Of a stretch of DNA of 64,000 bases, positions 49,332 to 64,000 are shown one piece after another. Below the pieces are notes generated by a model. The model did not search any database and had not been told where the DNA came from. It saw only the letters and a program-made list of their open reading frames with translations. Source of the stretch: a virus. Lineage: Duplodnaviria > Caudoviricetes. Position 1 is the stretch's first letter; every line of letters begins with the position of its first letter. The stretch lies in the IMG/VR virus record IMGVR_UViG_3300050156_000143, positions 128,001 through 192,000 of that record. One strand, 5' to 3'. The translations under genes and the position numbers were made by a program.

Positions 49332-50021
49332 ATGGTAACGTTGGAAACACAATTAACAGCATTGTATGCAGTCCAAAACAGTGATCACGTAATGCTTTGC
49401 ACCACATACGGCACTCCTCCAGTAGGTCAGTATTCGCGGATGATTTCGCTTGAAATTGTGGTCAATCCGCCAACCGAGTGGGTTCCCGTTAGCGCAACCA
49501 CCACATTCGAGCTGTTCACTGATGCTGCAAAACTTGGTGATAAGAATACACACATCTGTCCACCAGTCCCGTTCGATACACCAGACGAAATAAACGGTTT
49601 GCGTGGCATGATTTCCCCTGACTGGACTACTGAGAATTGGTTCAAATGTCACGTGAATGTAGCGGCCAACAAAATTGCCGCAAAAAGTCGTCGTGGGGCA
49701 GGAAATGCCATGTTTGCGAACGCGCACACGTTGCGGATGTTTGGAATCATCGCGATCGATGACGGCGTGGGTTTAAAAGATGTTGGTCATCTTGATCCAA
49801 GCAACCGGGTATCATGTTACGTTGTGCCACAAGGTTGGTTAAAAGATGGTGAAGTATTGGTTGCTTACCGTGGCAACAACGTCGGCGATAACGCACTATT
49901 TCTGTATACCCGGACAGAAAATGGGATAGATGAATTTTGCGTTGTCAAAAATGAGTCATCTTCTCACACCGCGACCGCCGCTGATTATTTTGCAAAGCTG
50001 ATATTACCCATCGCCCAATGA
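49332..50021 (+). CDS. Degenerate major-capsid paralog 2 (C-terminal half)
   Basis: VNVAANKIAAKSRRGAGN ~ INATANRIAQRTRRGAAN; VLVAYRG ~ VLIGYKG. Confidence 0.7.
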   Translation: MVTLETQLTALYAVQNSDHVMLCTTYGTPPVGQYSRMISLEIVVNPPTEWVPVSATTTFELFTDAAKLGDKNTHICPPVPFDTPDEINGLRGMISPDWTTENWFKCHVNVAANKIAAKSRRGAGNAMFANAHTLRMFGIIAIDDGVGLKDVGHLDPSNRVSCYVVPQGWLKDGEVLVAYRGNNVGDNALFLYTRTENGIDEFCVVKNESSSHTATAADYFAKLILPIAQ

Positions 50022-50716
50022 GTGGTAACAATATGACAACTTTAGAAACCCAGTTAACCGGGTTATATGGTGTTGGAAATGTTTCCAAAGTAGCGCGTTG
50101 TTTACATGAATATCCGGTAGAGTTGCCCCGTTCTCCATTTTCTCCTGAAAAGGATTGGGAACCGTGTGTGATAACTAGGCAAAAGTGGGTCATGACCAGC
50201 TTGCGTGAGCCGAGTCCAACTGATTGGAAAGCTGTGACCCACGATACACCGCGTCAGTTGTTTGATAATATCGCCAATGCTGTCGAAGTGAATGTGTATG
50301 ATTGTCGAGAAGCCCCGTGGAGGCGTTTTAGTCAGCGCCTTTTACTGGAACTTTTCTTCGGCATGAAGTGGAACCCTGGTGCAACCGTGTATGCAAATGT
50401 GAAAACAATGTGCTCCATCGGGGTATCCAATGATGGCATCCCAGATACTCAAACCGTGTCTCACCTAGGGTATTCTCAGTTGTCGTACCATCATGTTGAC
50501 AAACAGTCTTGTTACTGTGTTCCAGACGATTGGTTAACAGATGGCGAAATTTTGATGACACGTAACCACCGACATGTTACCCATTACGAGAAATTCTTAT
50601 ACACCAGAATGCAAAACAATTTGGAGGAATATTGTGTGATCGAAAAGCCGCCAAATGTCTATCATCGGCCCAGACCTGATGTCCCACAGTTAATCAAACT
50701 ATTGATGCCAATTTGA
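50018..50716 (+). CDS. Paralog of the 49332 gene (more diverged)
   Basis: Shared TLETQLT.LY.V and SCY.VP..WL.DGE.L..FLYTR..N..E.CV. Confidence 0.7.
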   Translation: MSGNNMTTLETQLTGLYGVGNVSKVARCLHEYPVELPRSPFSPEKDWEPCVITRQKWVMTSLREPSPTDWKAVTHDTPRQLFDNIANAVEVNVYDCREAPWRRFSQRLLLELFFGMKWNPGATVYANVKTMCSIGVSNDGIPDTQTVSHLGYSQLSYHHVDKQSCYCVPDDWLTDGEILMTRNHRHVTHYEKFLYTRMQNNLEEYCVIEKPPNVYHRPRPDVPQLIKLLMPI

Positions 50717-50722
50717 ATACCA

Positions 50723-51073
50723 ATGTCAATGAACCTTTGCCTATATGGTGAGAGAACCATAGCATATAAAGACGGCAACCGGAAACGGCGGACGTCAAAG
50801 CAGCAAATTGAGTTTGAATGCTGGCAGACACCGACTGAGGTGAGCTATGCAATCAAATCAAGCCCAGACCCATTGGTCGCATATTCCAACTGGGTGAAAG
50901 AAAATGATTCACCCTATGAGGAGTATGATTACGCTGACGGAAATTGGTCACTCGATGAAGAACCATGCGGTAAAATCCTAGTAAGCCCGGCTGAACAGCA
51001 TCTGACTAAATTGTCTGAATGGTTGTGTTTAGCGCAAGAAGAAGGTTACGCCATCACTTGGTCGGTGCAATAA
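50723..51073 (+). CDS. Conserved hypothetical protein
   Basis: WQTPT..Y..W..HL..L.EW...EGY.I.W. Confidence 0.7.
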   Translation: MSMNLCLYGERTIAYKDGNRKRRTSKQQIEFECWQTPTEVSYAIKSSPDPLVAYSNWVKENDSPYEEYDYADGNWSLDEEPCGKILVSPAEQHLTKLSEWLCLAQEEGYAITWSVQ

Positions 51074-51076
51074 ACC

Positions 51077-51104
51077 AAAAACCCACTGGTTAGGTGGGTT
51101 TTTT
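51077..51104 (+). terminator. Intrinsic terminator
   Basis: aaaaaccca..tgggtttttt. Confidence 0.75.
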
Positions 51105-51168
51105 CATGGCGTCTTGTTTTGTGAGGATTCAAAGTGCATAATCCACACATCGCAAACAGGAGCGCACA

Positions 51169-51474
51169 ATGTCTGGACAAGGTTTCACGACCATCACGGT
51201 CAAGTTGACGAAAAACGTGATGAATCCACGTGGCCATCTAAACGGGCTAATTGGCAGTGAATCGTACTATTTGGCACACAAGGGCGAGGAAGTTCGATTC
51301 ACTTATAAACTCGGTCAAGATAACACGGATAGTGATCTAAAACGTGTGGTCGATCTGATCATGTGCAAAAACAAATTTCCGATCGCTTATCGCACACGCC
51401 GTGAAGCCTGGACTCAAGACTTCGTCATCGTTTCCAAAGAAGATTGGTTCGACGATGAATACAACGGTGATTGA
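51169..51474 (+). CDS. Hypothetical protein
   Basis: AGGAG RBS. Confidence 0.65.
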   Translation: MSGQGFTTITVKLTKNVMNPRGHLNGLIGSESYYLAHKGEEVRFTYKLGQDNTDSDLKRVVDLIMCKNKFPIAYRTRREAWTQDFVIVSKEDWFDDEYNGD

Positions 51475-51514
51475 CACGTTGGCTTTCAACATTTAACACA
51501 AAGGATATTTCATT

Positions 51515-52774
51515 ATGGAACAAGATTACAACTTCATCGATGGCGTTCACGTTGGTATCAAAGCCTGGACTAAGGGTGTGCAAATGGAAGATGCTGCACG
51601 CCAACAATTGCTCAACATTTCATCACTGCCTTTTATCCATAGTCACATCGCGGTGATGCCCGATGTGCATTACGGTCTTGGTGCAACAATTGGCAGTGTG
51701 ATTGCCACAAAGGGCGCCATCGTTCCCGCTGCCGTGGGCGTTGATCTTGGCTGCGGTATGTTCGCACAACGCACGTCATTGGTCGCATCAGATTTGCCCG
51801 ACAACTTGCATGCCCTTCGCAGCAACATCGAGTCCAAGATTCCCCACGGTCGCACTAACAATGGCGGTCAAGGTGATCGCGGAGCGTGGCACAACGTTCC
51901 AGATGACGTTTACAAACGCTTGACTCCCAGTTTAACCGCATTGTCGGCCATCACTGAAAAACACCCCAAACTACAACGTGCGGCGCAACGTGCAGCAAAC
52001 CATTGTGGAACACTTGGTACTGGCAACCATTTTGTGGAAGTTTGCCTGGATGAGGAACAGCGTGTGTGGATCATGCTGCACTCGGGTTCACGTGGGATTG
52101 GCAACGCAATTGGCACTTATTTCATCGAACATGCTAAGAAAGATATGCAACGCTGGTTTATCAACTTGCCCGACCAAGATTTGGCATATATTCCGCAGGG
52201 TTCCGAGTTGTTTGACGACTACTGTCTGGCGTTAAAGTGGGCGCAAGATTATGCTCACATCAATCGCCAAGTCATGATGGATGCAGCGATGCGTGCTTTG
52301 ATTGAATCGGTGCCAAAACCGTTTACGTGCGACTGTGAATCGGTGCCAAAACCGTTTACGTGCGACTGTGAATCGGTCAATTGCCATCACAATTATGTGA
52401 ACTGGGAACGCCATTATGGGGAAAACGTGATGGTCACTCGTAAGGGCGCAGTCTCGGCACAGAAGGGGCAGTTTGGCATCATCCCCGGTAGCATGGGCGC
52501 AAAATCGTTCATTGTGAGTGGCAAAGGTAATCCAGAATCGTTTTGCTCATGTTCGCACGGAGCTGGGCGATCAATGTCTCGAACCGCAGCCAAAAAGAAA
52601 TTCACACTCAAAGACCACGAAATTGCCACCAATGGGGTTGAATGTCGAAAAGACGCGGACGTGATCGATGAAACCCCAATGGCGTACAAAGATATCGACG
52701 ATGTGATGAAGGCCCAAGAAAGCCTGGTGGACATCGTTCACACTTTGAAACAAATCGTGTGCGTGAAGGGGTGA
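51515..52774 (+). CDS. rtcB: RNA-splicing ligase RtcB
   Basis: MPDVH.G.GATIG, VGVDLGCG, GTLGTGNHF, LHSGSRG.G, HHNYV, RKGA, PGSMG, HGAGR, DETP.AYK. Confidence 0.96.
   Translation: MEQDYNFIDGVHVGIKAWTKGVQMEDAARQQLLNISSLPFIHSHIAVMPDVHYGLGATIGSVIATKGAIVPAAVGVDLGCGMFAQRTSLVASDLPDNLHALRSNIESKIPHGRTNNGGQGDRGAWHNVPDDVYKRLTPSLTALSAITEKHPKLQRAAQRAANHCGTLGTGNHFVEVCLDEEQRVWIMLHSGSRGIGNAIGTYFIEHAKKDMQRWFINLPDQDLAYIPQGSELFDDYCLALKWAQDYAHINRQVMMDAAMRALIESVPKPFTCDCESVPKPFTCDCESVNCHHNYVNWERHYGENVMVTRKGAVSAQKGQFGIIPGSMGAKSFIVSGKGNPESFCSCSHGAGRSMSRTAAKKKFTLKDHEIATNGVECRKDADVIDETPMAYKDIDDVMKAQESLVDIVHTLKQIVCVKG
52303..52377 (+). repeat. In-frame 33-bp tandem duplication in rtcB
   Basis: TGAATCGGTGCCAAAACCGTTTACGTGCGACTG twice, plus TGAATCGGT. 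Confidence 0.95.
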
Positions 52775-52778
52775 CACA

Positions 52779-53036
52779 ATGGACGAAACCGACTTAGCCA
52801 ATTTGTTACTCAACGATGTCCCAATAGAAATTGGCGAACGGGTGCAAATCATCAGCGGGGAATATTCTGGCAGAGTCGGAACGGTGTATGACGTGAATTC
52901 CGTGCGTGGCACTCAAACACTGGTCAAGGCACATCTAGATCAACCAGTGGACGGGCCATATTTATACGGCATGCTGCATATACACATTAGGCGCAAACAT
53001 GTAATTCGACACTGGGGGCAACATGGGAGAAATTGA
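52779..53036 (+). CDS. Family-S KOW/SH3-like small protein 1
   Basis: MDETDLANLL..IGERVQI..HW. Confidence 0.75.
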   Translation: MDETDLANLLLNDVPIEIGERVQIISGEYSGRVGTVYDVNSVRGTQTLVKAHLDQPVDGPYLYGMLHIHIRRKHVIRHWGQHGRN

Positions 53037-53271
53037 GCTAGCAAATTTACTCATGGGTGGAATTACCGTGGGTGATCGAGTTAGAGTTATTGACGCAGGG
53101 AAATCGGGAGGGTACTACAATGACGGTGAAACGGGAACGGTTCTAAGGGATGACACTATGAAAGATGACACAATATATGTGCAGTTCGATGCACACTGCG
53201 TTGCTCCCAACCGAAACGCTAACAATACTGCCTGGGTAAATGCAATGGCAGTCGAGAGAATCTGGGAGTAA
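53023..53271 (+). CDS. Family-S small protein 2
   Basis: EIELANLL..VGDRVRV..IWE. Confidence 0.75.
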   Translation: MGEIELANLLMGGITVGDRVRVIDAGKSGGYYNDGETGTVLRDDTMKDDTIYVQFDAHCVAPNRNANNTAWVNAMAVERIWE

Positions 53272-53274
53272 AAC

Positions 53275-53541
53275 ATGAACGAAAACGATGTTGCAAATTT
53301 GTTGTTACAAGACTTGCAATTTGAAGTGGGAGAACGGGTTGTCATACGAGATAATCCAATTGGGCAAGCTGCTGGAGTATGGTACGAAGGTGGAGAAACG
53401 GGGGTTATCCGTAACACTAGTATTCGCCATCCATGTGTTAAGTTTGATTTACCCAATCCCAAGTTGAAACGATTCGTCAATCACAATGGAGAACATTATT
53501 GTCACGTTGACATACGCGATCTTCGTCGTCATTGGGAGTAA
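53275..53541 (+). CDS. Family-S small protein 3
   Basis: ENDVANLL..FEVGERVVI..HWE. Confidence 0.75.
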   Translation: MNENDVANLLLQDLQFEVGERVVIRDNPIGQAAGVWYEGGETGVIRNTSIRHPCVKFDLPNPKLKRFVNHNGEHYCHVDIRDLRRHWE

Positions 53542-53544
53542 ACG

Positions 53545-53832
53545 ATGGATGAAACGTTTTTGGCAAAGTTATTGATAGGTGAATTCCAAGTTGGCGACAG
53601 AGTACAAGTCAAGTTTGGAACAAACGTTTTTGGGTATCGTGATGGCGCAACTGGCCGAATTGTCCTCATGAATCCAAATCACCCACAACGGATTTGTGCC
53701 GTTTCTTTCGACGATCCTCAAGCCATCGCAGCATCGCCAGCTAAATTAACATATAAAGAATTCGAGAATTGCCGCTGGTGCCCTGAACACCATCTAACTT
53801 ATTATTGGGAATCCGATGACACAACCTTCTGA
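53545..53832 (+). CDS. Family-S small protein 4
   Basis: DETFLAKLL..FQVGDRVQV..YYWE. Confidence 0.75.
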   Translation: MDETFLAKLLIGEFQVGDRVQVKFGTNVFGYRDGATGRIVLMNPNHPQRICAVSFDDPQAIAASPAKLTYKEFENCRWCPEHHLTYYWESDDTTF

Positions 53833-54073
53833 ACACGATGTTGCCAAAATGTTACTACACGGTACTCCATTTTCTGTTGGAGATCGGGTGGAAGTGACAT
53901 TCACATGCGACTATTACGCTAGTGGAGAACGGGGCACCATTGTGCTCGCCACAGACAGCGACGCTTACATAACGTTTGACCCACAATACGTGAACAAACA
54001 TCGATACCCATTCAATGGTCGTCCAAACTGCGCGAATGCAATTACCCAGTTTCTAACACATTGTTGGGATTAA
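53816..54073 (+). CDS. Family-S small protein 5
   Basis: EHDVAKML..FSVGDRVEV..HCWD. Confidence 0.75.
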   Translation: MTQPSEHDVAKMLLHGTPFSVGDRVEVTFTCDYYASGERGTIVLATDSDAYITFDPQYVNKHRYPFNGRPNCANAITQFLTHCWD

Positions 54074-54074
54074 G

Positions 54075-54287
54075 ATGGACGGAAACGTTTTAGCCAGCAT
54101 TCTCTTAACCGGGGTTCCGTATCAGGTTGGGGACAAGGTTCAAATAACCCACGAACATTGCCGCACTGGCGTTATTCATGAACTTCATAAACTAAACTCT
54201 GGTGATTCGTATGCCGTAGTTCAATTAGATGACTGCACAAGACGATACGTCCATGTCAGAATCTTAAACCATTATTTTGGAGAATAA
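54075..54287 (+). CDS. Family-S small protein 6
   Basis: DGNVLASIL..YQVGDKVQI..HYFGE. Confidence 0.75.
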   Translation: MDGNVLASILLTGVPYQVGDKVQITHEHCRTGVIHELHKLNSGDSYAVVQLDDCTRRYVHVRILNHYFGE

Positions 54288-54288
54288 A

Positions 54289-54705
54289 ATGAGTCAAACT
54301 GTTAAAAACCTTGTAATTCACGGTGTTGAATGGCGAATTGGGGATGAATTCTATTTCGTGCATCCCTACGAAATAGGACACAACCGGAAAGTGGTTGGGA
54401 TTGATGATAATGGCCTGGTACACGATTGCCACAATGGGAACAAACGGATTTGTGATCCTGCCAAAACACGTAATGGGGCAGTCTTCTACATCAATGTCGG
54501 TCACCAAGCTAGACTGACGGCAAAATTCCGCAAACCTGGTTTGTTGGTAAAAATGTCCGATGCGGAATTTATTCGGCGAAAACACGAGGTGGACAAAGCC
54601 ATGATTGCTTGCAAAATCGGGGGTTTCATCACGAATGCAACTATTATCTACACACTGGCAAAAATCAATATCAGAAAACATCGAATTGGCCTGGGACGAC
54701 TGTGA
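54289..54705 (+). CDS. Hypothetical protein
   Basis: GGAG RBS before MSQT. Confidence 0.6.
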   Translation: MSQTVKNLVIHGVEWRIGDEFYFVHPYEIGHNRKVVGIDDNGLVHDCHNGNKRICDPAKTRNGAVFYINVGHQARLTAKFRKPGLLVKMSDAEFIRRKHEVDKAMIACKIGGFITNATIIYTLAKINIRKHRIGLGRL

Positions 54706-55133
54706 AGGATCAGGCCGAAGTTACCCTCAACCAGTACGATCAACTTGTCTTTTACCGTGATTTACACCCTAGCCCTCCCATGAAAACACTATCTGATTTC
54801 CCGGTATTGGAAATTTTGGACAGGGTGGTTTTCAAAAATGGCGAACAAGGCATCTATCTCGGGGAAATGCGTGCAGGGAGTAAACGAGAACTATGCGCTG
54901 CGTTTATCGTCAATGATGGTCGCCACCCAAAATACATTCAGCCATCGGCAGTTCACCAATACGTTTCACACGTGTTCTCCCATGATGTTGAACATACTGT
55001 CAAAAATGGTATCAATTTTGCAACAAATTGCATGTACCGTGGAAAACTAAAATGGGAAGCACCATCGCTACGGTTAAAAGAAATTGACGAGCAGATTGCA
55101 AAATTGATGGAAGAACGTAGCAAGCTACTGTGA
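54609..55133 (+). CDS. Hypothetical protein (true start likely downstream, about 54702 or 54780)
   Basis: C-terminal coiled coil LKEIDEQIAKL; ends before a terminator. Confidence 0.55.
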   Translation: MQNRGFHHECNYYLHTGKNQYQKTSNWPGTTVKDQAEVTLNQYDQLVFYRDLHPSPPMKTLSDFPVLEILDRVVFKNGEQGIYLGEMRAGSKRELCAAFIVNDGRHPKYIQPSAVHQYVSHVFSHDVEHTVKNGINFATNCMYRGKLKWEAPSLRLKEIDEQIAKLMEERSKLL

Positions 55134-55134
55134 C

Positions 55135-55159
55135 AAAAAGCGGCATAGGCCGCTTTTTT
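55135..55159 (+). terminator. Intrinsic terminator
   Basis: aaaaagcggc-atag-gccgctttttt. Confidence 0.8.
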
Positions 55160-55234
55160 CATGATCCACCAAATTTATTTTCATTTTTTTCACCATTTTG
55201 TTGAAAAATGTGGTGAACTGTGGTTAAATACCTG

Positions 55235-55725
55235 CTGTGAGGGAGTTCCTACCTTGTCCCTCACAATGACCGGGGCATGACTCACCCTTACCGTGTATTC
55301 TCTCTGATCCGTGCGGAAAGCCAATTCATTTTGGTGGGGAAGCTGGATGACAAAATTAGTAGGACGATAGAGGTACAGGCCATATCAAAATGGCTTATTT
55401 AAGCTAGCAAAATTAGGAATAAAACCCATGTCACGAAAGTGATGATGGCAGTGTGAACAAGTTGGGGTATATCAAATCATATACCACCCTGGTGGATTCC
55501 AGGTTCAACAATGCGGATGAACGAGCACTGTGCAACTGATAATTGCAAACATCGGGAATAAAGGAGATGCTGGCCATCGGGTTCGGATACTGCATTAAAT
55601 TGCGACTTCGTAATGTGAATAGATAGACCCCCATAAGAACGTCTGTGCTATCTCACACCCTGCGAAGGTATCCGAACCCAATGAATATCACGTTTGCGCG
55701 TGAGTCTCACTCATGTCCAAATTTA
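55235..55725 (+). ncRNA. Candidate large structured ncRNA (B), late-promoter driven
   Basis: Starts just after TAAATA 55225-55230; helices gtgaggga/tccctcac, gccat/atggc, tcac-GAAA-gtga, ggtatat/atatacc, and a perfect 12-bp long-range helix 55579-55590/55668-55679; no credible ORF. Confidence 0.6.
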
Positions 55726-55765
55726 ATTGAGTTAAAAATTTTAAGTTAAATTATTCTTTGTAAAA

Positions 55766-56144
55766 TGATTTATAAGGAAGGCGAGCGCAGCGAAGCAAGC
55801 GAGTATTCCTTATAAATCACAGCGACTGTCAAGTCGGCTGTCTTCTTATTTGATTACCTTTCTCTCAAACGTGTTTATTCAATGTGATGAATAAAACCGA
55901 AAAGGCCACAATTGTGTCCAAATTTTTTTTATTTTTCTGGTTTAAGGTGGGTTGGAAACCTTGACGGAAAAGGTGTAGGGGGAAATTTCCAAAAACGAGT
56001 GATAGATGTATTTCCCAAAATTTTTCCCGGTGAAATTAAAGGCAAAAAACACCTATGAAATTTATAGGTTATCGGTCAAGCGAACAAGTCGCTCGCCCAG
56101 TTTTTGGCAAATCGCCCTCGATCGCTACGCTCACGAGTTCGCTT
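55766..56144. other. Candidate replication origin: two oppositely oriented hairpins with GCGA-rich loops in AT-rich DNA
   Basis: 14-bp perfect IR 55766-55779/55806-55819 around GGCGAGCGCAGCGAAGCAAGCGAG; IR 56078-56085/56137-56144 around TCGCTCGC..TCGCTACGCTC. Confidence 0.4.
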
Positions 56145-56484
56145 CACCAAAAACAAATCAGGAAATAAAGTTTTTCAAGAAACCGGGAAAAATCATAGCG
56201 AAAACAATGTCCTTCATCAGTTCAAAAATTCACCCAACGACCTGGAAATCGGCTCATGAATTTGCACAATGATGACAAAAATTTTTTGAAAAAATACAGA
56301 CACCCGCATGTAAAGTTTTGTAAAACCGGTTGACAAAAGTTGAAAACACTATGGGGCGCGGGACGGCGCCGCGCCAGAAAATTTTTCTCATGGAAAACAG
56401 TGATCGGGGTTCCGTTTTTGTGTGAAAATCTGATTTTCATGGGCCAACTGTGCCCAGCCCGGTTTTATCTACTTTTGGAGAATT

Positions 56485-56709
56485 GTGATGGATGAATTTG
56501 AATGTGCGAATTTGTTACTAAGTGGGCAATCATTTAAGATATCTGATAGTGTCCAACTAACTGCGGACACATATCCGCCCGTTCCGAATGGTGCAAATGG
56601 GGTGATCATAGCGAGAAACATCCGTAACACTCAGTATTACGTGCAATTCTCTTGTTTGCATTCTTGCGCACTGGTGGAATCCGCCCATTTGTCGTATTGT
56701 TGGGTGTAA
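56485..56709 (+). CDS. Family-S small protein 7
   Basis: DEFECANLL..FKISDSVQL..YCW. Confidence 0.7.
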   Translation: MMDEFECANLLLSGQSFKISDSVQLTADTYPPVPNGANGVIIARNIRNTQYYVQFSCLHSCALVESAHLSYCWV

Positions 56710-56711
56710 TA

Positions 56712-56918
56712 ATGATCGAACGTACATGTCATGGTGGTAAACACTTTTTTGCAAAGTTGGCGGACATAAAGCGTGGCTGGGCCAACAGTTGTAGTAAATC
56801 TTGTGCTGCACATACTAGGGAAAACCGATTGGGTCGCAATGGATATCGTGGGGTCAACGTGGCAAAATTCTTTAATGCCCACCTTTGCAGTAACAAAGAT
56901 TTGGATCGTAACAAATGA
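56712..56918 (+). CDS. Small Cys-containing (treble-clef-like) phage protein
   Basis: C..GK.F.A..ADIKRGW...CSKSCA. Confidence 0.6.
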   Translation: MIERTCHGGKHFFAKLADIKRGWANSCSKSCAAHTRENRLGRNGYRGVNVAKFFNAHLCSNKDLDRNK

Positions 56919-57151
56919 GTGATGAAATTGACGAAAATGCGCTGGCCTCTATATTGGCAGGTGATTTCCAAGTTGGGGATCGGGTTGCCCCCAGGGTCAA
57001 GTCGCGGCGGTGGATTGGGATGGTCGATAGTGTTGTTAATGGCCGCTATGGCTCGTTCGTGATTGTTAGGGTACGAGGATACACTGGGTGTATTCGGTGT
57101 GTGCCGACCGATCTCGAACATTATTTCGGAGAAACCGATGAATCACGATGA
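56915..57151 (+). CDS. Family-S small protein 8
   Basis: DENALASIL.GDFQVGDRV..HYFGE. Confidence 0.75.
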   Translation: MSDEIDENALASILAGDFQVGDRVAPRVKSRRWIGMVDSVVNGRYGSFVIVRVRGYTGCIRCVPTDLEHYFGETDESR

Positions 57152-57395
57152 TATTGTGAGTATTCTGCGAGGTGGGTTTGCCGTTGGGGATATCGTGATT
57201 GCCATTCGCATCATGCGTTCACGCAACAAAGTGATCGTGAACCCTGGTGATGTTGGCGTGGTGGATCGCGTACTGGATAATGGGTGTTGCGTGGTATTGT
57301 TCACTATGGAACTAAACTATCCGGGGTTTGAACCTTATGTGACTACGATTTACGCACCGATAGACCGCTATCTTCGCTACTATTACAAGGATTAA
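57138..57395 (+). CDS. Family-S small protein 9 (start 57138)
   Basis: DDIVSILRGGFAVGDIV..YYY. Confidence 0.7.
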   Translation: MNHDDIVSILRGGFAVGDIVIAIRIMRSRNKVIVNPGDVGVVDRVLDNGCCVVLFTMELNYPGFEPYVTTIYAPIDRYLRYYYKD

Positions 57396-57396
57396 T

Positions 57397-57645
57397 ATGG
57401 ACGAGATCGAATGTGCCAATTTGCTTAGGGGTGATTTTCAAGTGGGTGACAAAGTGCGACTTGCCGATCATTATGTCAATCAATTTCCGCACACCAAAGA
57501 AGAAGCGGGCCACCTGGCATGGCATGGTAAGGTGATTGCCACATCTTGTGTTCCAGTATCCCGTTGTCTATCCCATTGTCTGGTGCTTTATGGTGACACC
57601 ACGGAGTGGTAACCTGTAAGTAATCTGACATATTGCTGGGACTGA
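57397..57645 (+). pseudogene. Family-S small protein 10, with premature TAA at 57610-57612
   Basis: DEIECANLLRGDFQVGDKV; in-frame continuation PVSNLTYCWD carries the family C-terminal motif. Confidence 0.65.
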
Positions 57646-57743
57646 CAGTGCCCCCACGATGTCCTCACATTGTTGTCAACTTTTATCGCACGATGCCGAC
57701 CGTTGTGGTTATACTGGCACCACTTTAACCAAAGGAGAGTTCT

Positions 57744-58730
57744 GTGAAACGAGTTTTTGTTGCTTTTTTGATGACGCTGGCGATGACGCTAGCTCACGCC
57801 TTGCCGAGTCCGCGTGATGTGGAATTTCAGTTGCAAAGCGGCAACTACGCCGCTGCAAGGGCAATGGTGGTGGAAGTGTTGCAAGCCAAACCCGACAGTG
57901 CTCAGGCTCATCTGTTGAAGGCTGCTATTTTGGTGGATAGTGATCGCAACATGTCGGCTGCACGTTCCGAGCTAGAATTGGTGAAAACGTTGGATCAAAA
58001 TGGCAAGACCGTGAATTCACCGTTGATGAACCGGTTGCAGTCAACCGTGAATGCGTTTTACGCTGAACGACAAATCGCTCAGTCGAAGTTGCAATCTGTT
58101 CCTCAACCCGTACCCCAAGTTGTTCAACCACCCGTACAACATCAGGTGGCTCTTGCAAACGAATCTTCGGGTATTGGATTCTGGGTATTGATCCTCATCC
58201 TGGTACTGGCAGCAGGTTTCGCTCTGTACCGAATTCTCCGGCAACATGAATTGGAACGTGTGGTATCGGGTGGTCGAACCACTCGCAAAAATGATGAAGT
58301 GGACGATTATTTGGCCCGATCGAGCTATTCGGCCCCGTCTGCTTCATCGTATACGCCACCTGTACCCGCACCTGTACCCACGCCGTATGTTCGCACTGAA
58401 CGTCATGTGGTTCACCATGAGCATCACTATGACAATACTGGTGGCGCAATGAGTGCGGGCATTGGCGCAGCTATTGGTGCAGGTGTGGGCGTACTGGCAG
58501 CAGAAACATTGTTGCATTCTGATCGTCATTCTGCCCCCGCGCCTTATTCACCCCCGTATTCACCACCTGTTTCTACCTCTGTGGCGCCAACCTATAGCAG
58601 CGGTTCTTCATCGTGGGATGATGAGCGTTCGTCCAGGACTTATGACAGTGGGTCGAGTTCATGGGATAATGCGCCAAGCCCATCGTCAAGCTCAAGTTCT
58701 GACTCTGACTCTGGTTCTAGTGACTGGTGA
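57744..58730 (+). CDS. Exported TPR-like protein with TM helix and Pro/Ser-rich tail
   Basis: Signal peptide, GNY..A..VL...P.SA.AH, central TM segment, low-complexity C-terminus. Confidence 0.7.
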   Translation: MKRVFVAFLMTLAMTLAHALPSPRDVEFQLQSGNYAAARAMVVEVLQAKPDSAQAHLLKAAILVDSDRNMSAARSELELVKTLDQNGKTVNSPLMNRLQSTVNAFYAERQIAQSKLQSVPQPVPQVVQPPVQHQVALANESSGIGFWVLILILVLAAGFALYRILRQHELERVVSGGRTTRKNDEVDDYLARSSYSAPSASSYTPPVPAPVPTPYVRTERHVVHHEHHYDNTGGAMSAGIGAAIGAGVGVLAAETLLHSDRHSAPAPYSPPYSPPVSTSVAPTYSSGSSSWDDERSSRTYDSGSSSWDNAPSPSSSSSSDSDSGSSDW

Positions 58731-58741
58731 TTGAACAATAG

Positions 58742-58766
58742 AAAAAGCGGCCTAGGCCGCTTTTTT
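58742..58766 (+). terminator. Intrinsic terminator identical in core to 36990
   Basis: aaaaagcggcctaggccgctttttt. Confidence 0.8.
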
Positions 58767-58790
58767 GGCAAACTAAGCAAAGATTGCATC

Positions 58791-59165
58791 ATGAATTTAA
58801 CCAAGATTGTTCGTCGGGTTCGTAAAGCGTCTGAAGCAGCGATGAACGCACGGTGGTTTTCACCTTATAACGCCATTTTGATCTCCACTTTGTCTCAAAC
58901 GGAGCATGCGGTCTACGTTGCAAACAAAATGGGGCTAGAATACTCCCCAATTGTAGTAACACATTTCAGTTTGGGTGAATTTACTCGTCGCCAAGTGGCC
59001 GATGCAACGGAAACTGATGTGTTTTGTGGCGATAACGCTTGTTGTTTACTGGTGGGCGATGATGAAATGAACCGTTGGCACAATTGGGGTGATACTCCTG
59101 ACAGTTATTTTGACTCTGAACAAGTTCGATGTGAAGTGCAATCCAGGTATGCCACAGTATCTTAA
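58791..59165 (+). CDS. Hypothetical protein (start 58791)
   Basis: The upstream part of the track ORF is the terminator. Confidence 0.55.
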   Translation: MNLTKIVRRVRKASEAAMNARWFSPYNAILISTLSQTEHAVYVANKMGLEYSPIVVTHFSLGEFTRRQVADATETDVFCGDNACCLLVGDDEMNRWHNWGDTPDSYFDSEQVRCEVQSRYATVS

Positions 59166-59337
59166 ATATTGTCCGTTTTGTAAGCATGTTCCGCCAATAG
59201 ATTATGAAACTGTTCACCGTGTTGACATAATGGGGACAGTTTGGCGCGCAGGTTGTGATAACTGTGATGCGTCGATCTTGGCAGATTCTGAACTTGAAGC
59301 GATCGAGAAATGGAACACCCGTGTTAACGACGATTGA
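59149..59337 (+). CDS. Lar-family restriction alleviation-like zinc protein
   Basis: LK.CPFC..C.NC..A..EAIEKWNTR. Confidence 0.7.
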   Translation: MPQYLKYCPFCKHVPPIDYETVHRVDIMGTVWRAGCDNCDASILADSELEAIEKWNTRVNDD

Positions 59338-59578
59338 CTCAAATTTGGTGATGTGGTTGGATGTTCAAAGCACCATAAAACCAATTTCGGTTCCTCGTGC
59401 AAAGAAGGCGCAGAAAAAACTGCTGGCCATCGTGGGTTGGATGGATTTGCACCAGATTCCACACGAAACGTGGACATTGAACAACGGATTGGGTGATATT
59501 GCAGAGATTCGGTTTGCGCAATCAGCGTTCTCTGACAAGTTGGTGGAAGAATTTTGTAATCTATTTTGTGAGGAATGA
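59255..59578 (+). CDS. Hypothetical protein (start uncertain)
   Basis: ORF in operon. Confidence 0.45.
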   Translation: MITVMRRSWQILNLKRSRNGTPVLTTIDSNLVMWLDVQSTIKPISVPRAKKAQKKLLAIVGWMDLHQIPHETWTLNNGLGDIAEIRFAQSAFSDKLVEEFCNLFCEE

Positions 59579-59581
59579 TGA

Positions 59582-59815
59582 ATGAACCCGGTTCCAAGAT
59601 ATTGGTGGAAAATGGATACCAAGAATAATCAGATAGTGGTTCATTCTGACTACCCAGGTGGGCGCAATTTGGCCGCATTCGGGTTCGTGGAAGATGCGGA
59701 TGAAGGTATTGCTCAAGCTGAACGTCTAATTTCGGATTATCGTGCGGGTAGGGCAACTCCAACGTTTACCAGGTTTACCGGTGCTGGTGTGAGTGGTTAT
59801 AGGGGATACAAATGA
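59582..59815 (+). CDS. Hypothetical protein
   Basis: GAGG RBS. Confidence 0.6.
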   Translation: MNPVPRYWWKMDTKNNQIVVHSDYPGGRNLAAFGFVEDADEGIAQAERLISDYRAGRATPTFTRFTGAGVSGYRGYK

Positions 59816-60021
59816 GATTTGGTGAGTTTTTGTATTGGTACACTGTTATGTGTGTGGTGGTTTGGGTAATGGGTTCGTGTTTGGTCAGTGTTTTTGCGGC
59901 GGATTATTTCTCGTTTGATGCCACCGTTTCAGCATTCATATTGCAACCGTTGGCTGGGATGATTGGGTTGGTTGTGTCAAAATGCACTTATCATGAAGTT
60001 TGGGAAAGGATTCGAGAATGA
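59812..60021 (+). CDS. Small membrane protein
   Basis: Two hydrophobic segments. Confidence 0.6.
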   Translation: MRFGEFLYWYTVMCVVVWVMGSCLVSVFAADYFSFDATVSAFILQPLAGMIGLVVSKCTYHEVWERIRE

Positions 60022-60329
60022 CGCCAGAAGATGACCTGATATCGGTGTTGCGTGGCTTTCAGCGCGGTGATTTGGTTACGGTTGACCCAGCTTGTCTGGC
60101 CCCGGATTGGAAAGGAATGCGATCCATGCGAACGTGTTGCGATCGTGACGTGTGGTGGCGGCCACCAGGCACGGATTCAATTCGGGAATTTGCGGCCAAA
60201 CAATCTGCATTGGTGACGGAGAGTTCACTCGAACCACGGTGGCTTGTTTGCTTGCTACTAGACGGTAGTTCGGTTTGGCTGTTCTCAGATGAAATTATCC
60301 ATTTCTATCCAGGTAGTGATCTACGGTGA
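60018..60329 (+). CDS. Family-S small protein 11 (start 60018)
   Basis: EDDLISVLRGFQRGDLVTV..IHFY. Confidence 0.6.
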   Translation: MTPEDDLISVLRGFQRGDLVTVDPACLAPDWKGMRSMRTCCDRDVWWRPPGTDSIREFAAKQSALVTESSLEPRWLVCLLLDGSSVWLFSDEIIHFYPGSDLR

Positions 60330-60715
60330 GGGACAAAATGCTTAAACAGGTTATTCTGGTGCGAAAAGATTTACACATGGGTGTTGGTAAAATTGCTGCA
60401 CAAGTTGCTCACGCGAGCATGGCGGCATTTTTGAAAGATAGTCAAACCATTGGTGATTCTCTGATAGTTCCCTTGACTGAGCACAATAAGGGCTGGATTG
60501 GAGGATCATTCACTAAAGTGTGTTTGGGTGTGAAGACTGAAGGTGAATTGCGGGCATTGCTGGAGTCAGCTAGATTGGTTGGGATTCCCCACGGCTTAAT
60601 CACTGACAATGGGCGAACAGTGTTTAATGGTGTCCCCACAGTGACATGTGGGGCTATCGGCCCTTATGATGCTACCGTGATCGACACCATAACAGGACAT
60701 TTGACACTACTATGA
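60326..60715 (+). CDS. pth2: Peptidyl-tRNA hydrolase, Pth2 type
   Basis: KQVILVRKDL.M..GKIAAQVAHAS, TKVCL, ITDNGRT, TCGAIGP. Confidence 0.92.
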   Translation: MRDKMLKQVILVRKDLHMGVGKIAAQVAHASMAAFLKDSQTIGDSLIVPLTEHNKGWIGGSFTKVCLGVKTEGELRALLESARLVGIPHGLITDNGRTVFNGVPTVTCGAIGPYDATVIDTITGHLTLL

Positions 60716-61149
60716 CTAGAGATTGGAAGGCGGAATGCGCTGATGTTACTGGGATTGGATACAGAATCGAATATTCTAGCCATGCTATGCTCTGTGGCAT
60801 CCCTTCTATTTTGGCACCAGTGCGTATTTGGCTCCAACAACGGTATCGAATTGACCAACGGACTGATTTCGAGTTTTTTATATGCCCAAACAGCATAGAC
60901 GGGAACGAATGGGCTGGTTTGTGGAAAATGCTGGATGCCCTATTGTGGGCTGGCGCTTCGATTGTGGGGTGGATCGGCCAATCTGATCGAGCACTGTTGT
61001 GTGCAAATTTTGAGTACGTGGAATCAATGATGGAAAATTATGAATCAATGGTGGTGGAACCATGTTTTCACACCATGCCCAACATTTTAGGGGCTATTGT
61101 GTCGTTTGACCAGGTGCGCGCACCTGCATTGCGACTGGTCACATCATGA
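60712..61149 (+). CDS. Hypothetical protein
   Basis: Coupled ORF. Confidence 0.55.
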   Translation: MTRDWKAECADVTGIGYRIEYSSHAMLCGIPSILAPVRIWLQQRYRIDQRTDFEFFICPNSIDGNEWAGLWKMLDALLWAGASIVGWIGQSDRALLCANFEYVESMMENYESMVVEPCFHTMPNILGAIVSFDQVRAPALRLVTS

Positions 61150-61601
61150 CAGCCACGATGTTCAAAGATGTGTGTTCTATCAGACGACTTGGGGTGAGAA
61201 CTAGAGTGGTGGCGTCAGTGTGTGAAATCGGATTCGGGAAAGCAAATGACTATAATCGAGTGAAGGCGTTATATTCCAAATTTTCGTCGATACTCGACGG
61301 CTATCAGTCTGACCGTCAATGGCATTACAGCTATCGTTTCGCAGCAGAATTTCACCCAGACAAAACGGATCAGGCCAAATGGCTACATTCGGTTATTTGG
61401 GATAGCAGCAATACTGATACCGCGTATTTGTGGGTATCTCGCAACACAGTGATTGTTGCAGCACCGTCCGCAACGTTGGCAAACTTGTTGACACAATATA
61501 CGCCGTTGTCCTCGTGGTTTTACTTCAGAGTGAACGACTGTGTTGTTGGTAAATTCACGCTGTCTGACGATGATGCCACCCATTTGATGTTGATCAACTA
61601 A
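61146..61601 (+). CDS. Hypothetical protein, family T (C-terminal DD.T..ML)
   Basis: Ends FTLSDDDATHLMLIN. Confidence 0.6.
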   Translation: MTATMFKDVCSIRRLGVRTRVVASVCEIGFGKANDYNRVKALYSKFSSILDGYQSDRQWHYSYRFAAEFHPDKTDQAKWLHSVIWDSSNTDTAYLWVSRNTVIVAAPSATLANLLTQYTPLSSWFYFRVNDCVVGKFTLSDDDATHLMLIN

Positions 61602-61603
61602 CA

Positions 61604-62038
61604 ATGCTTAATATTCACGATGTTTGGGTAGATTTTTCACAATTGGCGCGTCAAGTGCGTATTCATCTAGACACAAGTGACATTGCATCGTTGCACGCGG
61701 TGGGTTCAGACGTTGAAACGGTTGCGCGTCTGATTGACGGTCATATGAACAAATGCGATATTACTGTTGGCCCCTATTGGACTAGCACACACGAACAAAA
61801 CATACAAATTGATTCACAAACTGGCAAAGAACTGTTTAACTTATGGTGTCGAAATGTGGATGGCAGTTTACACATAATTTGGATCAACTGCATGGAGTGC
61901 ATAACCAACGCGCAAACAATTTCGTCGGACAGTGTGGTACACCAATACCGAATAAACGCTACCCCAGAATGGGTTATAAGTCGGCTGAAGTTTTTGGATG
62001 ACGAATCCAAGACGGCTTTTATATTATTGAATGGGTGA
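61604..62038 (+). CDS. Hypothetical protein, family T
   Basis: Ends LKFLDDESKTAFILLNG. Confidence 0.6.
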   Translation: MLNIHDVWVDFSQLARQVRIHLDTSDIASLHAVGSDVETVARLIDGHMNKCDITVGPYWTSTHEQNIQIDSQTGKELFNLWCRNVDGSLHIIWINCMECITNAQTISSDSVVHQYRINATPEWVISRLKFLDDESKTAFILLNG

Positions 62039-62474
62039 TGTTATGACTATTGTGCCAATGATATGGATTGAAATTCAACAGCAATGGGATTCCAAATTAA
62101 CACACATCGAGTTGGAGTCATATACTCCCGAACCTTTGGGGTGGGTGGAATTGGACTTGCTTGAATTTACTGAGGCGAAACATGTAGTGGAAATACATCG
62201 ATCGATCGACGACCTCCCTGGTAGTCGCAACGATTGTTATATCGAAACAGAATGTGCCCAAACATGGTGGACATTCGTTACCACACCGGGTCAAATTAAA
62301 TGGCTGTCGGAATTTGAATGCTTACTGACGAATATCCATGTTGACCCAGATTCGGTGAATCACCCCAATGGGCAGACGATACACTCGTATTTGGTCTCTG
62401 ATAACAACATTTTGGTATCGAGAATACGGCTCGACGACGAAACTATGAAAACCGCATTGATTTTGGGACTGTGA
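62031..62474 (+). CDS. Hypothetical protein, family T
   Basis: Ends IRLDDETMKTALILGL. Confidence 0.6.
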   Translation: MGDVMTIVPMIWIEIQQQWDSKLTHIELESYTPEPLGWVELDLLEFTEAKHVVEIHRSIDDLPGSRNDCYIETECAQTWWTFVTTPGQIKWLSEFECLLTNIHVDPDSVNHPNGQTIHSYLVSDNNILVSRIRLDDETMKTALILGL

Positions 62475-62475
62475 A

Positions 62476-62973
62476 TTGACCGAATTGATTTGTACGTCCA
62501 TGTGGAAATACTCGATTGGCGCCACTGATGGGTCGAGTGAAGTGATGATTCACGCCGTGGTGGAGAACGAATGTGTCACTTTTCCACCGTATATTCATTC
62601 ACAACTCGCTATAACTGGTGCGTGTATGCCGTCAAGAGGTGGCGTTGTCCAATACGTTCTAGTGCTGCAAATTGGAGGGGGTCATTATGAACGTACAGTG
62701 GCCAACCCAACCGATATTTCATCGTTACTCACGTTATTGGGTGAAATGTTCATGCTTTCAGACAACGGGATCGATCCAGCCCATGTCGTGAAATCCACTC
62801 ACTTCGCTGAGAACAGTGTGTGGACACTCATGACTCACGGTGAAATTTGCGACTTTGAGGAAACCGTGGGCGCACAATGTTGCACACAATGGTTGACCAC
62901 TTTTCATGGGTATGTGCTAGTGGAAATTCCAATCATGCACTACAATCGGCGTCATGAACTACGTAACCAGTGA
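62476..62973 (+). CDS. Hypothetical protein
   Basis: ORF in operon. Confidence 0.55.
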   Translation: MTELICTSMWKYSIGATDGSSEVMIHAVVENECVTFPPYIHSQLAITGACMPSRGGVVQYVLVLQIGGGHYERTVANPTDISSLLTLLGEMFMLSDNGIDPAHVVKSTHFAENSVWTLMTHGEICDFEETVGAQCCTQWLTTFHGYVLVEIPIMHYNRRHELRNQ

Positions 62974-63514
62974 CTGGCACTTGAACCACAAACGGATTCT
63001 CTCAGTGTGCCCCAAAACACGGGGCCAATTCGATGTGATTCCATACTCACTCCCCTATAATTTGTGGATCATGAATGAAACAATGGTTCATGAATTTAAC
63101 CAAACGGTGAATCCCACCGATACCACATATTTTTTGGGAGATATGGGATTTGGTGAATACAGATTGGTGAGTAGTCTTATTTCCAGATTGAATGGGAAGA
63201 AAGTTCTGGTCAAGGGAATCCACGATCATAGTCTTATCACGAAACCAACGTTTGGTGAACAGTTCACCAAAATTGTTGACTATCTTGAAGAAAAGATTGA
63301 CGGACAGAAATTCGTCATGATGCACTACCCGGTTTACGATTGGAATGGCCAACATCACGGAACCTGTCATCTTCATGGGCATCGCCACGGAACCGTACAT
63401 GGTATTCCTGGTAGAATCCTGGATGTTGGGTTTGATGCCACTGGCAAAATCGTTCTGCCCTTTGTTGACATCATCGAACGCCTACGATCTATCCAGCCTG
63501 GTAAACACCATTGA
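62954..63514 (+). CDS. Calcineurin-like metallophosphoesterase
   Basis: TSDWH, LGDMGF, GIHD (usually GNHD), MHYP, HLHGHRH, ILDVG.D. Confidence 0.88.
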   Translation: MNYVTSDWHLNHKRILSVCPKTRGQFDVIPYSLPYNLWIMNETMVHEFNQTVNPTDTTYFLGDMGFGEYRLVSSLISRLNGKKVLVKGIHDHSLITKPTFGEQFTKIVDYLEEKIDGQKFVMMHYPVYDWNGQHHGTCHLHGHRHGTVHGIPGRILDVGFDATGKIVLPFVDIIERLRSIQPGKHH

Positions 63515-63536
63515 CTCACTTTGAGAGGAACTTGAA

Positions 63537-63740
63537 ATGAACATGCGCAACGCTCGTCGCCAAACCAACGCCAAGATGGCGGTCGAATTGAATGCACGGA
63601 CTTGGATCGCAGAGTTGGTCGATCGGATCAACCATCGATATGATGGGGAAATTAAACCCGTGATTGCCTATGCCAAAAAATGTATTTGGGCAATCGAGTA
63701 CCTGAAACCAGACTTTTCTAAATTGGAGAATGACCAATGA
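63537..63740 (+). CDS. Hypothetical protein
   Basis: GAGG RBS. Confidence 0.5.
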   Translation: MNMRNARRQTNAKMAVELNARTWIAELVDRINHRYDGEIKPVIAYAKKCIWAIEYLKPDFSKLENDQ

Positions 63741-63852
63741 GCATTCGTAAAATCGCACGATACACCAAACAACGTCAAGTCCTGAGTTCCATGCGATTTG
63801 CCGAATTTATGGCATACTTGGATAACATTAACGGGGAATTCTTGTGACAAAC

Positions 63853-64000
63853 GTGATTAAACATTGTTGGTTAGACCTTGAAGATACCATCATCACCCCA
63901 GTGCTGTCAGGGTGGCATAACAGTGAGGCAATCAACGTTGACAAAATTCGGCGGTTCATAGCTAATAACAAATTCGATCGCATTAATTTGTTCAGCTTTG
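63853..64000 (+). CDS. Partial ORF, possible HAD-like protein
   Basis: Hand-translated MIKHCWLDLEDTII..; runs off the window. Confidence 0.4.
   Translation, partial: MIKHCWLDLEDTIITPVLSGWHNSEAINVDKIRRFIANNKFDRINLFSF

Follow-up and report, generated by a model that had tools for sequence, protein, structure and literature searches.

Results

Eleven paralogs in the window and thirty more domains elsewhere

The window analyzed here is a 64-kb stretch, bases 128001–192000 of the 277,516-bp IMG/VR virus record IMGVR_UViG_3300050156_000143, which carries terminal repeats. The source is an uncultured leaf-litter phage that is T4-like by its Gp20-type portal (E 4e-92) and Gp23 major capsid protein (E 8e-92); the window holds seven tRNA genes. 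Between window positions 52779 and 60329 lie eleven small open reading frames (ORFs), all on the plus strand, that align as one family. They are listed below in window positions. Orthologs are the counterparts on contigs of sister strains, and dN/dS is the ratio of nonsynonymous to synonymous substitution rates.

52779..53036, plus strand: copy 1, 85 amino acids (aa); shortest loops, nearest to the classical KOW motif; 93% identical to its ortholog in sister contig L006, dN/dS 0.25
53023..53271, plus strand: copy 2, 82 aa; 14-nt overlap with copy 1; ortholog 78% identical, dN/dS 0.29
53275..53541, plus strand: copy 3, 88 aa; 3 nt past copy 2; ortholog 72% identical, dN/dS 0.30
53545..53832, plus strand: copy 4, 95 aa; top match of the family profile (E 2.6e-25); modeled by AlphaFold2 (AF2); ortholog 80% identical
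53816..54073, plus strand: copy 5, 85 aa; 17-nt overlap with copy 4; ortholog 85% identical, dN/dS 0.47
54075..54287, plus strand: copy 6, 70 aa; closes run 1; ortholog 90% identical, dN/dS 0.16
56488..56709, plus strand: copy 7, 73 aa from ATG 56488 (alternative start GTG 56485); first gene past a noncoding block
56915..57151, plus strand: copy 8, 78 aa; family profile E 6e-11
57138..57395, plus strand: copy 9, 85 aa; 14-nt overlap with copy 8
57397..57645, plus strand: copy 10, ORF of 71 aa; in-frame TAA at 57610–57612; the match of the family model spans 57397–57642 with one TAA within
60018..60329, plus strand: copy 11, 103 aa; 4-nt overlap with the preceding 69-aa ORF; most divergent window copy

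An earlier reading of the same letters, hereafter the original prediction, had described eleven paralogs at this place. All eleven ORFs and their starts are present, but copy 7 more likely begins at ATG 56488 than at GTG 56485. The profile hidden Markov model that had been proposed as a check was built from the eleven copies and searched against the six-frame translation of the genome. It recovered the eleven at E 5e-32 to 3e-13 among 38 matching places genome-wide. An iterated search over all genome ORFs converged in three rounds on 40 ORFs with 41 domains, the eleven window copies scoring E ~1e-11 to 3e-25. We judge the eleven to be real paralogs, chance resemblance being excluded. Eleven is thus the count in the window, but the whole genome holds nearly four times as many.

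The members are 66–105 aa long and together occupy ~10 kb, or 3.8% of the genome. Their clusters lie at genome positions 0.4–5 kb, 19 kb, 27 kb, 46.7–56.3 kb (15 copies, minus strand), 122 kb, 180.8–188.3 kb (the eleven window copies) and 253.8–255.7 kb. Pairwise identity between paralogs has a median of 28% and a maximum of 58%, and the paralogs are old. A recent “accordion” amplification was ruled out, since merely three pairs are more than 50% identical.

Constant positions and variable loops

Across the 41 domains the N terminus reads M-D/N-E-x-x-L/V-A-x-L-L, with one leucine invariant and the start methionine and early glutamate conserved. It is followed by an F-x-x-G-D-x-V motif (G in 39 of 41 domains, D in 38, V in 36), then by G-x-x-G-x-I/V, a V/I, a tryptophan (27/41), and finally L-x-H/Y-Y/H-Y/F/W at the C terminus. 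The helix motif, G-D-x-V and variable middle that had been described for the eleven copies therefore hold for the whole family. Within the helix, conservation is limited to the hydrophobic face (L/V, A, L, L), and the polar positions differ between copies. Spacing at the two ends is fixed, at 6–9 residues from the helix leucine to G-D and 3 residues from the last leucine to the last aromatic. Between them, three inner segments vary from 8 to 36, 7 to 23 and 0 to 26 residues. Most members are acidic: the median isoelectric point (pI) is 5.0, 32 of 41 lie below 6, one lies above 8, and the median net charge is −4. Copy 11 belongs to a subtype with the pattern LRGF ... W-x-x-S-D-E-I-x-H-F-Y.

The conserved residues are encoded by all their synonymous codons, six for the invariant leucine and four for each glycine. 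Their constancy is therefore selected at the protein level, and the same observation rules out a DNA-level repeat or gene conversion as the source of the constant ends. Targets of a diversity-generating retroelement were likewise ruled out. Such elements are marked by a reverse transcriptase and a template repeat; the genome has no reverse transcriptase (no RVT_1 match), and the paralogs differ throughout rather than at adenine-coded sites alone.

A helix-capped SH3-like barrel

AF2 was run with the 41-row family alignment on two distant members, copies 4 and 11. The copy 4 model (predicted local distance difference test score, pLDDT, 86.3; predicted template modeling score, pTM, 0.74) has a helix at residues 3–11 and strands at 19–22, 36–43, 50–55, 76–80 and 84–86. 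The copy 11 model (pLDDT 69; loops 35–46 and 60–67 of low confidence) has the same order of elements, with a helix at 3–12 and strands at 19–22, 53–59, 74–78, 85–89 and 93–95. In both, the strands form a bent five-stranded antiparallel barrel with a short 3-10 turn ahead of the last strand. Each copy is thus predicted to consist of an N-terminal amphipathic helix capping a KOW-type SH3-like five-stranded barrel. The KOW/SH3-like core of the original prediction is borne out by these two models, which share one topology rather than showing unrelated folds, and by a profile match to an Spt5 KOW domain (below). A homodimer prediction for copy 4 scored 0.00, which speaks neither for nor against a dimer.

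Exhaustive structural comparison placed nearest the N-domain of Hpy99I (Z 8.2), Spt5 KOW6-7 (Z 8.0), the SH3-like domain of Xrn1 (Z 7.6) and YorP (Z 7.5); Z scores of 7–8 fall in the range that the comparison tool terms common and indicate fold class only. Tudor, PsaE, CAP-Gly and R67 dihydrofolate reductase were further neighbors. Sm/Hfq entries were absent from the 50 best structural rows, which does not exclude kinship with them, and the layout of copy 4 is compatible with it. Foldseek searches of the PDB, BFVD and the AlphaFold DB returned CAP-Gly, KOW and SH3_12 domains (best E 5e-4). Against PDB sequences, the family profile matched Spt5 KOW2-3 (4ytl) at E 7e-6, other Spt5 entries at 9e-6 to 1e-4, YdhK at 1.6e-5, and NusG and L24 at 0.06–0.2.

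Curated databases hold no counterpart. No member exceeded a Pfam cut-off; the best hit was copy 1 to KOW (PF00467; E 7.5e-4, 19.7 bits against a gathering threshold of 22.3). At E ≤0.01, KOW matched 2/41 members, and SH3_15 and SH3_12 matched one each at E 0.002–0.004, below their cut-offs (SH3_12 through copy 7, E 0.0044). The YorP family PF09629 matched no member at E ≤0.01. PHROGs gave weak matches, to unnamed families only, and the nearest ESM Atlas clusters were unnamed or domains of unknown function (scores ≤0.91). The family is indeed not a described one, as had been suspected: no curated Pfam family matches it, its PHROG matches are weak and unnamed, and it has no annotated relative.

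Translational coupling and the tail motif

Junctions between family genes in the window are overlaps of 14–17 nt or gaps of 1–3 nt. This agrees with the translationally coupled runs originally described, but run 2 is interrupted by an unrelated 68-aa ORF at 56712–56918. At a typical run junction the upstream protein ends H-Y-Y-E-E-Q-N-D-stop and the next ATG lies within an 8-nt overlap (ATGAnTGA), with GAGGA, GGAGA, GGAG or TGGGAG 7–8 nt ahead of it. The W-E codons of copy 2 (TGGGAG), for example, act as the Shine–Dalgarno site of copy 3. In copies that have no coupled family gene downstream, the aromatic pair is mostly kept, whereas the following E/G-E/D is mostly replaced, most commonly by P-P, Q-P or P-E. 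The tail aromatics are thus a feature of the protein, and the E/G-E/D after them is constrained by translation of the neighbor, as the Shine–Dalgarno site of the next overlapping gene. The terminal aromatic motif of the original prediction stands for its aromatics, but part of it serves the next gene for ribosome binding. In copy 10 the wrong segment had been aligned as the tail. The true last strand, N-L-T-Y-C-W-D, is encoded past the stop at 57613–57642, the TAA falling ten codons ahead of the end. Copy 10 is truncated or a recent pseudogene, and in related contigs its gene carries small indels.

Most runs are embedded in longer operons. At the 18 run heads, sigma-70-like promoter scores average 8.1 against 7.8 at random genome positions, which is no difference. 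The TAAATA late-type motif occurs within 200 nt of none of these 18 heads and at 4 of 15 structural gene heads. The classical T4 late box, TATAAATA, was dropped as a marker; it occurs five times in the whole genome.

Two single copies (genome 3395 and 253753) have upstream a sigma-70-like promoter whose −10 element falls between the arms of a short GGTGC/GCACC hairpin (L001 ~3325–3375 and L005 ~1690–1740). A similar arrangement is found in T4-like phages as promoter-early stem-loop elements (PMC4122927); the window itself has no such hairpin.

Selection and turnover

In contigs of sister strains, synteny is kept with window run 1 and with the runs at 46–52 kb. These contigs provide 13 ortholog pairs, 67–99% identical. 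Pooled over these pairs, dN/dS is 0.31 for all family codons and 0.10 for the adjoining fragment of RtcB; by region it is 0.19 in the N-terminal block, 0.35 in the middle and 0.36 in the C-terminal block. The family genes are thus under purifying selection, weaker than for an enzyme, and the copies are maintained genes rather than DNA repeats. Sequencing runs that contain this DNA come from leaf litter and freshwater; contigs from four DNA runs contain relatives with substitutions and small indels, and the loops carry in-frame indels in sister strains and related contigs.

Within the N-terminal helix of the copy at 122 kb, a 14-bp tandem duplication (TTGGTCGCATTATT / TTGGTCGCATTGTT; genome 122223–122265; L004:1224–1266) causes a frameshift. 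This copy and the next one are joined in a single in-frame fusion, the sole two-domain ORF of the family, which lies outside the window.

Confinement to a narrow lineage

Searched among 1.84 billion representatives, the family profile retrieved 1,872 proteins. The top matches are long cellular proteins with 4–28 SH3_15/SH3_12 repeats, aligned only through profile positions 13 to 56 or 71. Twelve full-length single-domain matches were read among the best 150; eleven are the phage's own and one (P0125) belongs to a sister strain. Word-indexed protein searches returned the phage's own proteins, sister-strain orthologs on leaf-litter contigs of the Joint Genome Institute (JGI), and two weak matches on short contigs, one from Logan and one from JGI. 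GenBank phages (50,697 records) gave no match by megablast of an 8.5-kb stretch or by tblastn of copy 4, and an IMG/VR search with copy 4 alone found no relative.

The phage itself does have relatives at the level of its capsid. A major capsid protein search found 209 related IMG/VR stretches at 70–77% identity. None of the ten largest related records (109–357 kb, one rated complete; capsid 71–77% identical) yielded a match to the family at E ≤1e-3, against 38 matches for a search of this kind in the phage's own genome. Full-length relatives thus come from sister strains only and the related large records have none, so the family is restricted to this phage and its sister strains, a narrow lineage.

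The surroundings of the runs

Two further genes adjoin or interrupt the runs.

51515..52774, plus strand: RtcB RNA ligase gene (Pfam RtcB E 4e-128), upstream of run 1, with a gap of 4 nt to copy 1
56712..56918, plus strand: non-family 68-aa Cys/His-rich ORF; its ATG lies 2 nt past the copy 7 stop, coupled within run 2

The RtcB gene is probably cotranscribed with run 1. Eleven of its residues are duplicated in tandem and in frame (E-S-V-P-K-P-F-T-C-D-C twice, at 52290–52360), and at this place a related-strain contig jumps from 52302 to 52336, leaving out exactly 33 bases. The Cys/His-rich ORF matches four PHROG families without assigned function, PHROG 21416 and 17137 among them (best E 2e-9), and no Pfam family. 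Copy 11 is flanked by a Lar-like restriction-alleviation protein (59089–59337; PF14354, E 8e-7) and by a PTH2 peptidyl-tRNA hydrolase (60326–60715; E 4e-29). The accessory neighbors are RtcB, the Lar-like protein, PTH2 and a tetratricopeptide repeat (TPR) membrane protein, and Pfam and PHROGs found nothing further among the neighboring genes.

Between the two runs, ~1.35 kb (55134–56484) is without a convincing ORF. This block opens with a strong hairpin terminator at ~55137–55160, has a TAAATA at 55226–55231, and between 55900 and 56400 is rich in A-run/T-run palindromes such as AAAATTTTT. Few differences separate it from the related contigs that span it, and Rfam gave no match at E ≤0.1 over window positions 50000–64000. 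The gene after run 1 (54277–55133) is split into two overlapping frames of 142 and 174 aa. Its sister-contig counterpart (L006:1821–2570) is one 249-aa ORF with the last part in another frame, and contigs from two sequencing runs skip 203 bases at 54516–54720. This gene is frameshift-prone or decaying; it has SH3-like-looking strands at its start and is not matched by the family model.

Downstream of PTH2, at 60712–62973, lie five co-oriented, overlapping ORFs of 144–165 aa. They resemble one another weakly: the others are 13–20% identical to the first, with shared W and L-x-N/G ends. None has a Pfam match, and the first also lacks a PHROG match. These five may be a second paralog array.

Discussion

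A proposed repertoire of small binders

The family, its fold class, its copy number, its restriction to one lineage, purifying selection on it and the coupling of its genes are established. The family is undescribed. The interpretation that we prefer, and to which we give about an even chance, is that these proteins form a lineage-restricted family of small, mostly acidic, soluble, intracellular, non-virion binders, each with a different host or competitor target, that serve host takeover or counter-defense. The binder role itself is something we infer. A fixed scaffold would be made up of the hydrophobic helix face, the first (G-D-x-V), second (G-x-x-G-x-V) and last (L-x-H-Y-Y) strands and the tryptophan, and the three inner loops, variable in length and in sequence, would carry the specificity of each copy. 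The genes lie in translationally coupled runs within accessory (“hyperplastic”) regions of this T4-like jumbo phage, and the codons that follow the tail aromatics (GAG-GA, GGA-GA, TGG-GAG) also provide the next gene with its ribosome-binding site. Each product would then bind a different host or competitor protein inside the cell. The RtcB, Lar-like and PTH2 neighbors are only suggestive with regard to an anti-defense or host-takeover role.

Several observations weigh against this interpretation. The scaffold role of the conserved positions is read from the pattern of their conservation. In the loops dN/dS averages below 1, giving no sign of an ongoing arms race in the thin sample afforded by one sister lineage. 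The absence of TAAATA from the run heads is not significant alone (0 seen against 0.54 expected by chance), and a good sigma-70-like promoter stands at only 2 of 18 run heads. Finally, one sister strain has no copy at genome position 49685, copy 10 is truncated by its TAA and the 122-kb copy has its frameshifting duplication, so not every copy is indispensable.

These last three lesions, together with ortholog identities that range from 67% to 99%, are also what one would expect if the copies were largely dispensable, drifting duplicates of no specific function, tolerated in number by a large capsid. We regard this as very improbable. Of 41 domains, 39 are intact despite divergence to ~28% identity, the scaffold is conserved at a dN/dS of 0.31, and the order of the genes is syntenic in sister strains. 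Placing the proteins in the virion, as capsid decoration or as internal or injected proteins that enter with the DNA, would suit their small size and acidity, which some injected anti-restriction proteins share. Yet the TAAATA motif present at structural genes is found at none of the 18 run heads, the N termini as read from the sequences do not have the L/I-x-E pattern of a T4-type protease site, and the runs occupy accessory regions distant from the head and tail modules. We therefore hold a virion role to be improbable, if less so than drift.

Slightly better placed, and still unlikely, is the idea that KOW-, Sso7d- or Sm-like barrels bind nucleic acid, the ribosome or RNA polymerase, or mimic the contacts of NusG/Spt5 KOW domains, and so retune host transcription or translation. 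The best sequence-level relatives are Spt5/NusG KOW domains and ribosomal L21e/L24, a helix followed by a bent five-stranded sheet is also the Sm/Hfq layout, the top structural neighbor is the DNA-contacting N-domain of Hpy99I, and RNA-repair and translation functions (RtcB, PTH2, tRNAs) are encoded nearby. However, acidity of this degree (median net charge −4; 1/41 with pI >8) is unusual for general nucleic acid binders, and 41 divergent copies are hard to square with one conserved site on a nucleic acid or polymerase. The strongest of the competitors, although we doubt it as well, is the model put forward in the original prediction, in which the constant helix and tail dock all copies on one shared phage or host machine while the variable barrel surface recruits different targets, which would amount to an adaptor library. 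Helix and tail vary least over the 41 domains, constraint between orthologs is tightest in the N-terminal block (dN/dS 0.19), coupled and presumably equimolar expression suits proteins that act jointly, and one structural neighbor, HspQ (5ycq, Z 6.5), is a specificity factor of the Lon protease. Against this, the polar positions of the helix vary and its hydrophobic face alone is conserved, the next gene's ribosome-binding site accounts for part of the tail motif, and no candidate partner gene accompanies the runs by Pfam or PHROGs on the neighbors. AF2 moreover merges the helix with the first and last strands into one compact domain (pTM 0.74), and for that reason a scaffold explains the conservation as well or better. 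A handle for a shared partner is a possible reading of the constant parts, though not one needed to explain them.

What such a repertoire would mean

The phage devotes about 3.8% of its 277-kb genome to a single undescribed family of small proteins. Capsid-level relatives are without it, yet selection retains it here, and it is among the larger single-family expansions seen in a phage. It offers a natural set of ~40 loop variants on one stable scaffold of ~80 residues. If the copies bind host or defense proteins, they would show large phages building host-range or counter-defense repertoires by duplication and would provide a compact scaffold for binder engineering. The conserved tail motif, whose codons also hold the ribosome-binding site of the following gene, illustrates dual coding clearly, and such an overlap can mislead motif-based readings. 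A bolder version of docking, which we rate as a long shot, would have the constant helix and aromatic tail act as a universal plug that fixes 40 binding heads, each defined by its loops, to a single machine of the host or the phage, such as a protease or another processing complex. If true, the phage would come equipped with a whole set of targeting adaptors able to redirect many host proteins simultaneously, something undescribed for phages.

Comparison with known systems

It is instructive to set the binder family proposed here beside other small barrels. KOW domains of NusG, Spt5 and ribosomal proteins bind the ribosome, RNA polymerase or RNA and are usually basic or part of a larger factor. 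Those of NusG/Spt5, L24 and L21e (PF00467; 4ytl, 5ohq) have in common with the phage proteins a five-stranded SH3-like barrel and the G-D/E-x-V-x-V ... G-x-x-G-x-V signature. In contrast, the phage proteins stand alone, are acidic, measure 66–105 aa and have an extra N-terminal helix and a W ... L-x-H-Y-Y end. Their loop between the two KOW strands is enlarged by up to 36 residues, and 41 copies occur in one phage. The SH3_15 domains of the Mind bomb/HERC2 type (PF18346) and the SH3_12 domain of Xrn1 (PF18129) were retrieved by the profile and align structurally at Z 6.6–7.6. They are tandem repeats in one polypeptide and are without the N-terminal helix and tail motif, whereas the phage domains are separate, coupled genes. 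YorP of the Bacillus prophage SPbeta (2heq; PF09629) is likewise a small, stand-alone, phage-encoded SH3-like protein. It aligns over 74 residues, nearly the whole AF2 model (Z 7.5, root-mean-square deviation 3.2 Å), with no sequence-level match. YorP is not known to belong to a large multigene family.

Precedents exist for the expansion itself. In Bacillus phage G, a zinc ribbon has undergone a lineage-specific expansion to ~35 copies; these were suggested to act as transcription factors or to bind DNA (Iyer et al. 2021, PMC7824862). That family is likewise a small single-domain protein present in tens of copies in one jumbo phage lineage and is a precedent in kind; fold, host group and phage lineage differ, and the SH3/KOW-like family is acidic. 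The hyperplastic regions of T4-like phages hold adaptive genes (Comeau, Arbiol and Krisch 2014, PMC4122927). The loci described here resemble them as runs of small, strain-variable genes between T4 core blocks, with gain and loss between close strains. Such regions are usually filled with unrelated ORFans, whereas here one family provides 40 ORFs and ~10 kb. The hallmark of lineage-specific expansions in jumbo phages is seen in its 41 divergent domains, in the lack of a match in ten related records (0/10) and in full-length matches elsewhere that are restricted to sister strains. Overall, jumbo phages were already known to amplify small domains of common fold within single lineages, and the family that has expanded here is a new one.

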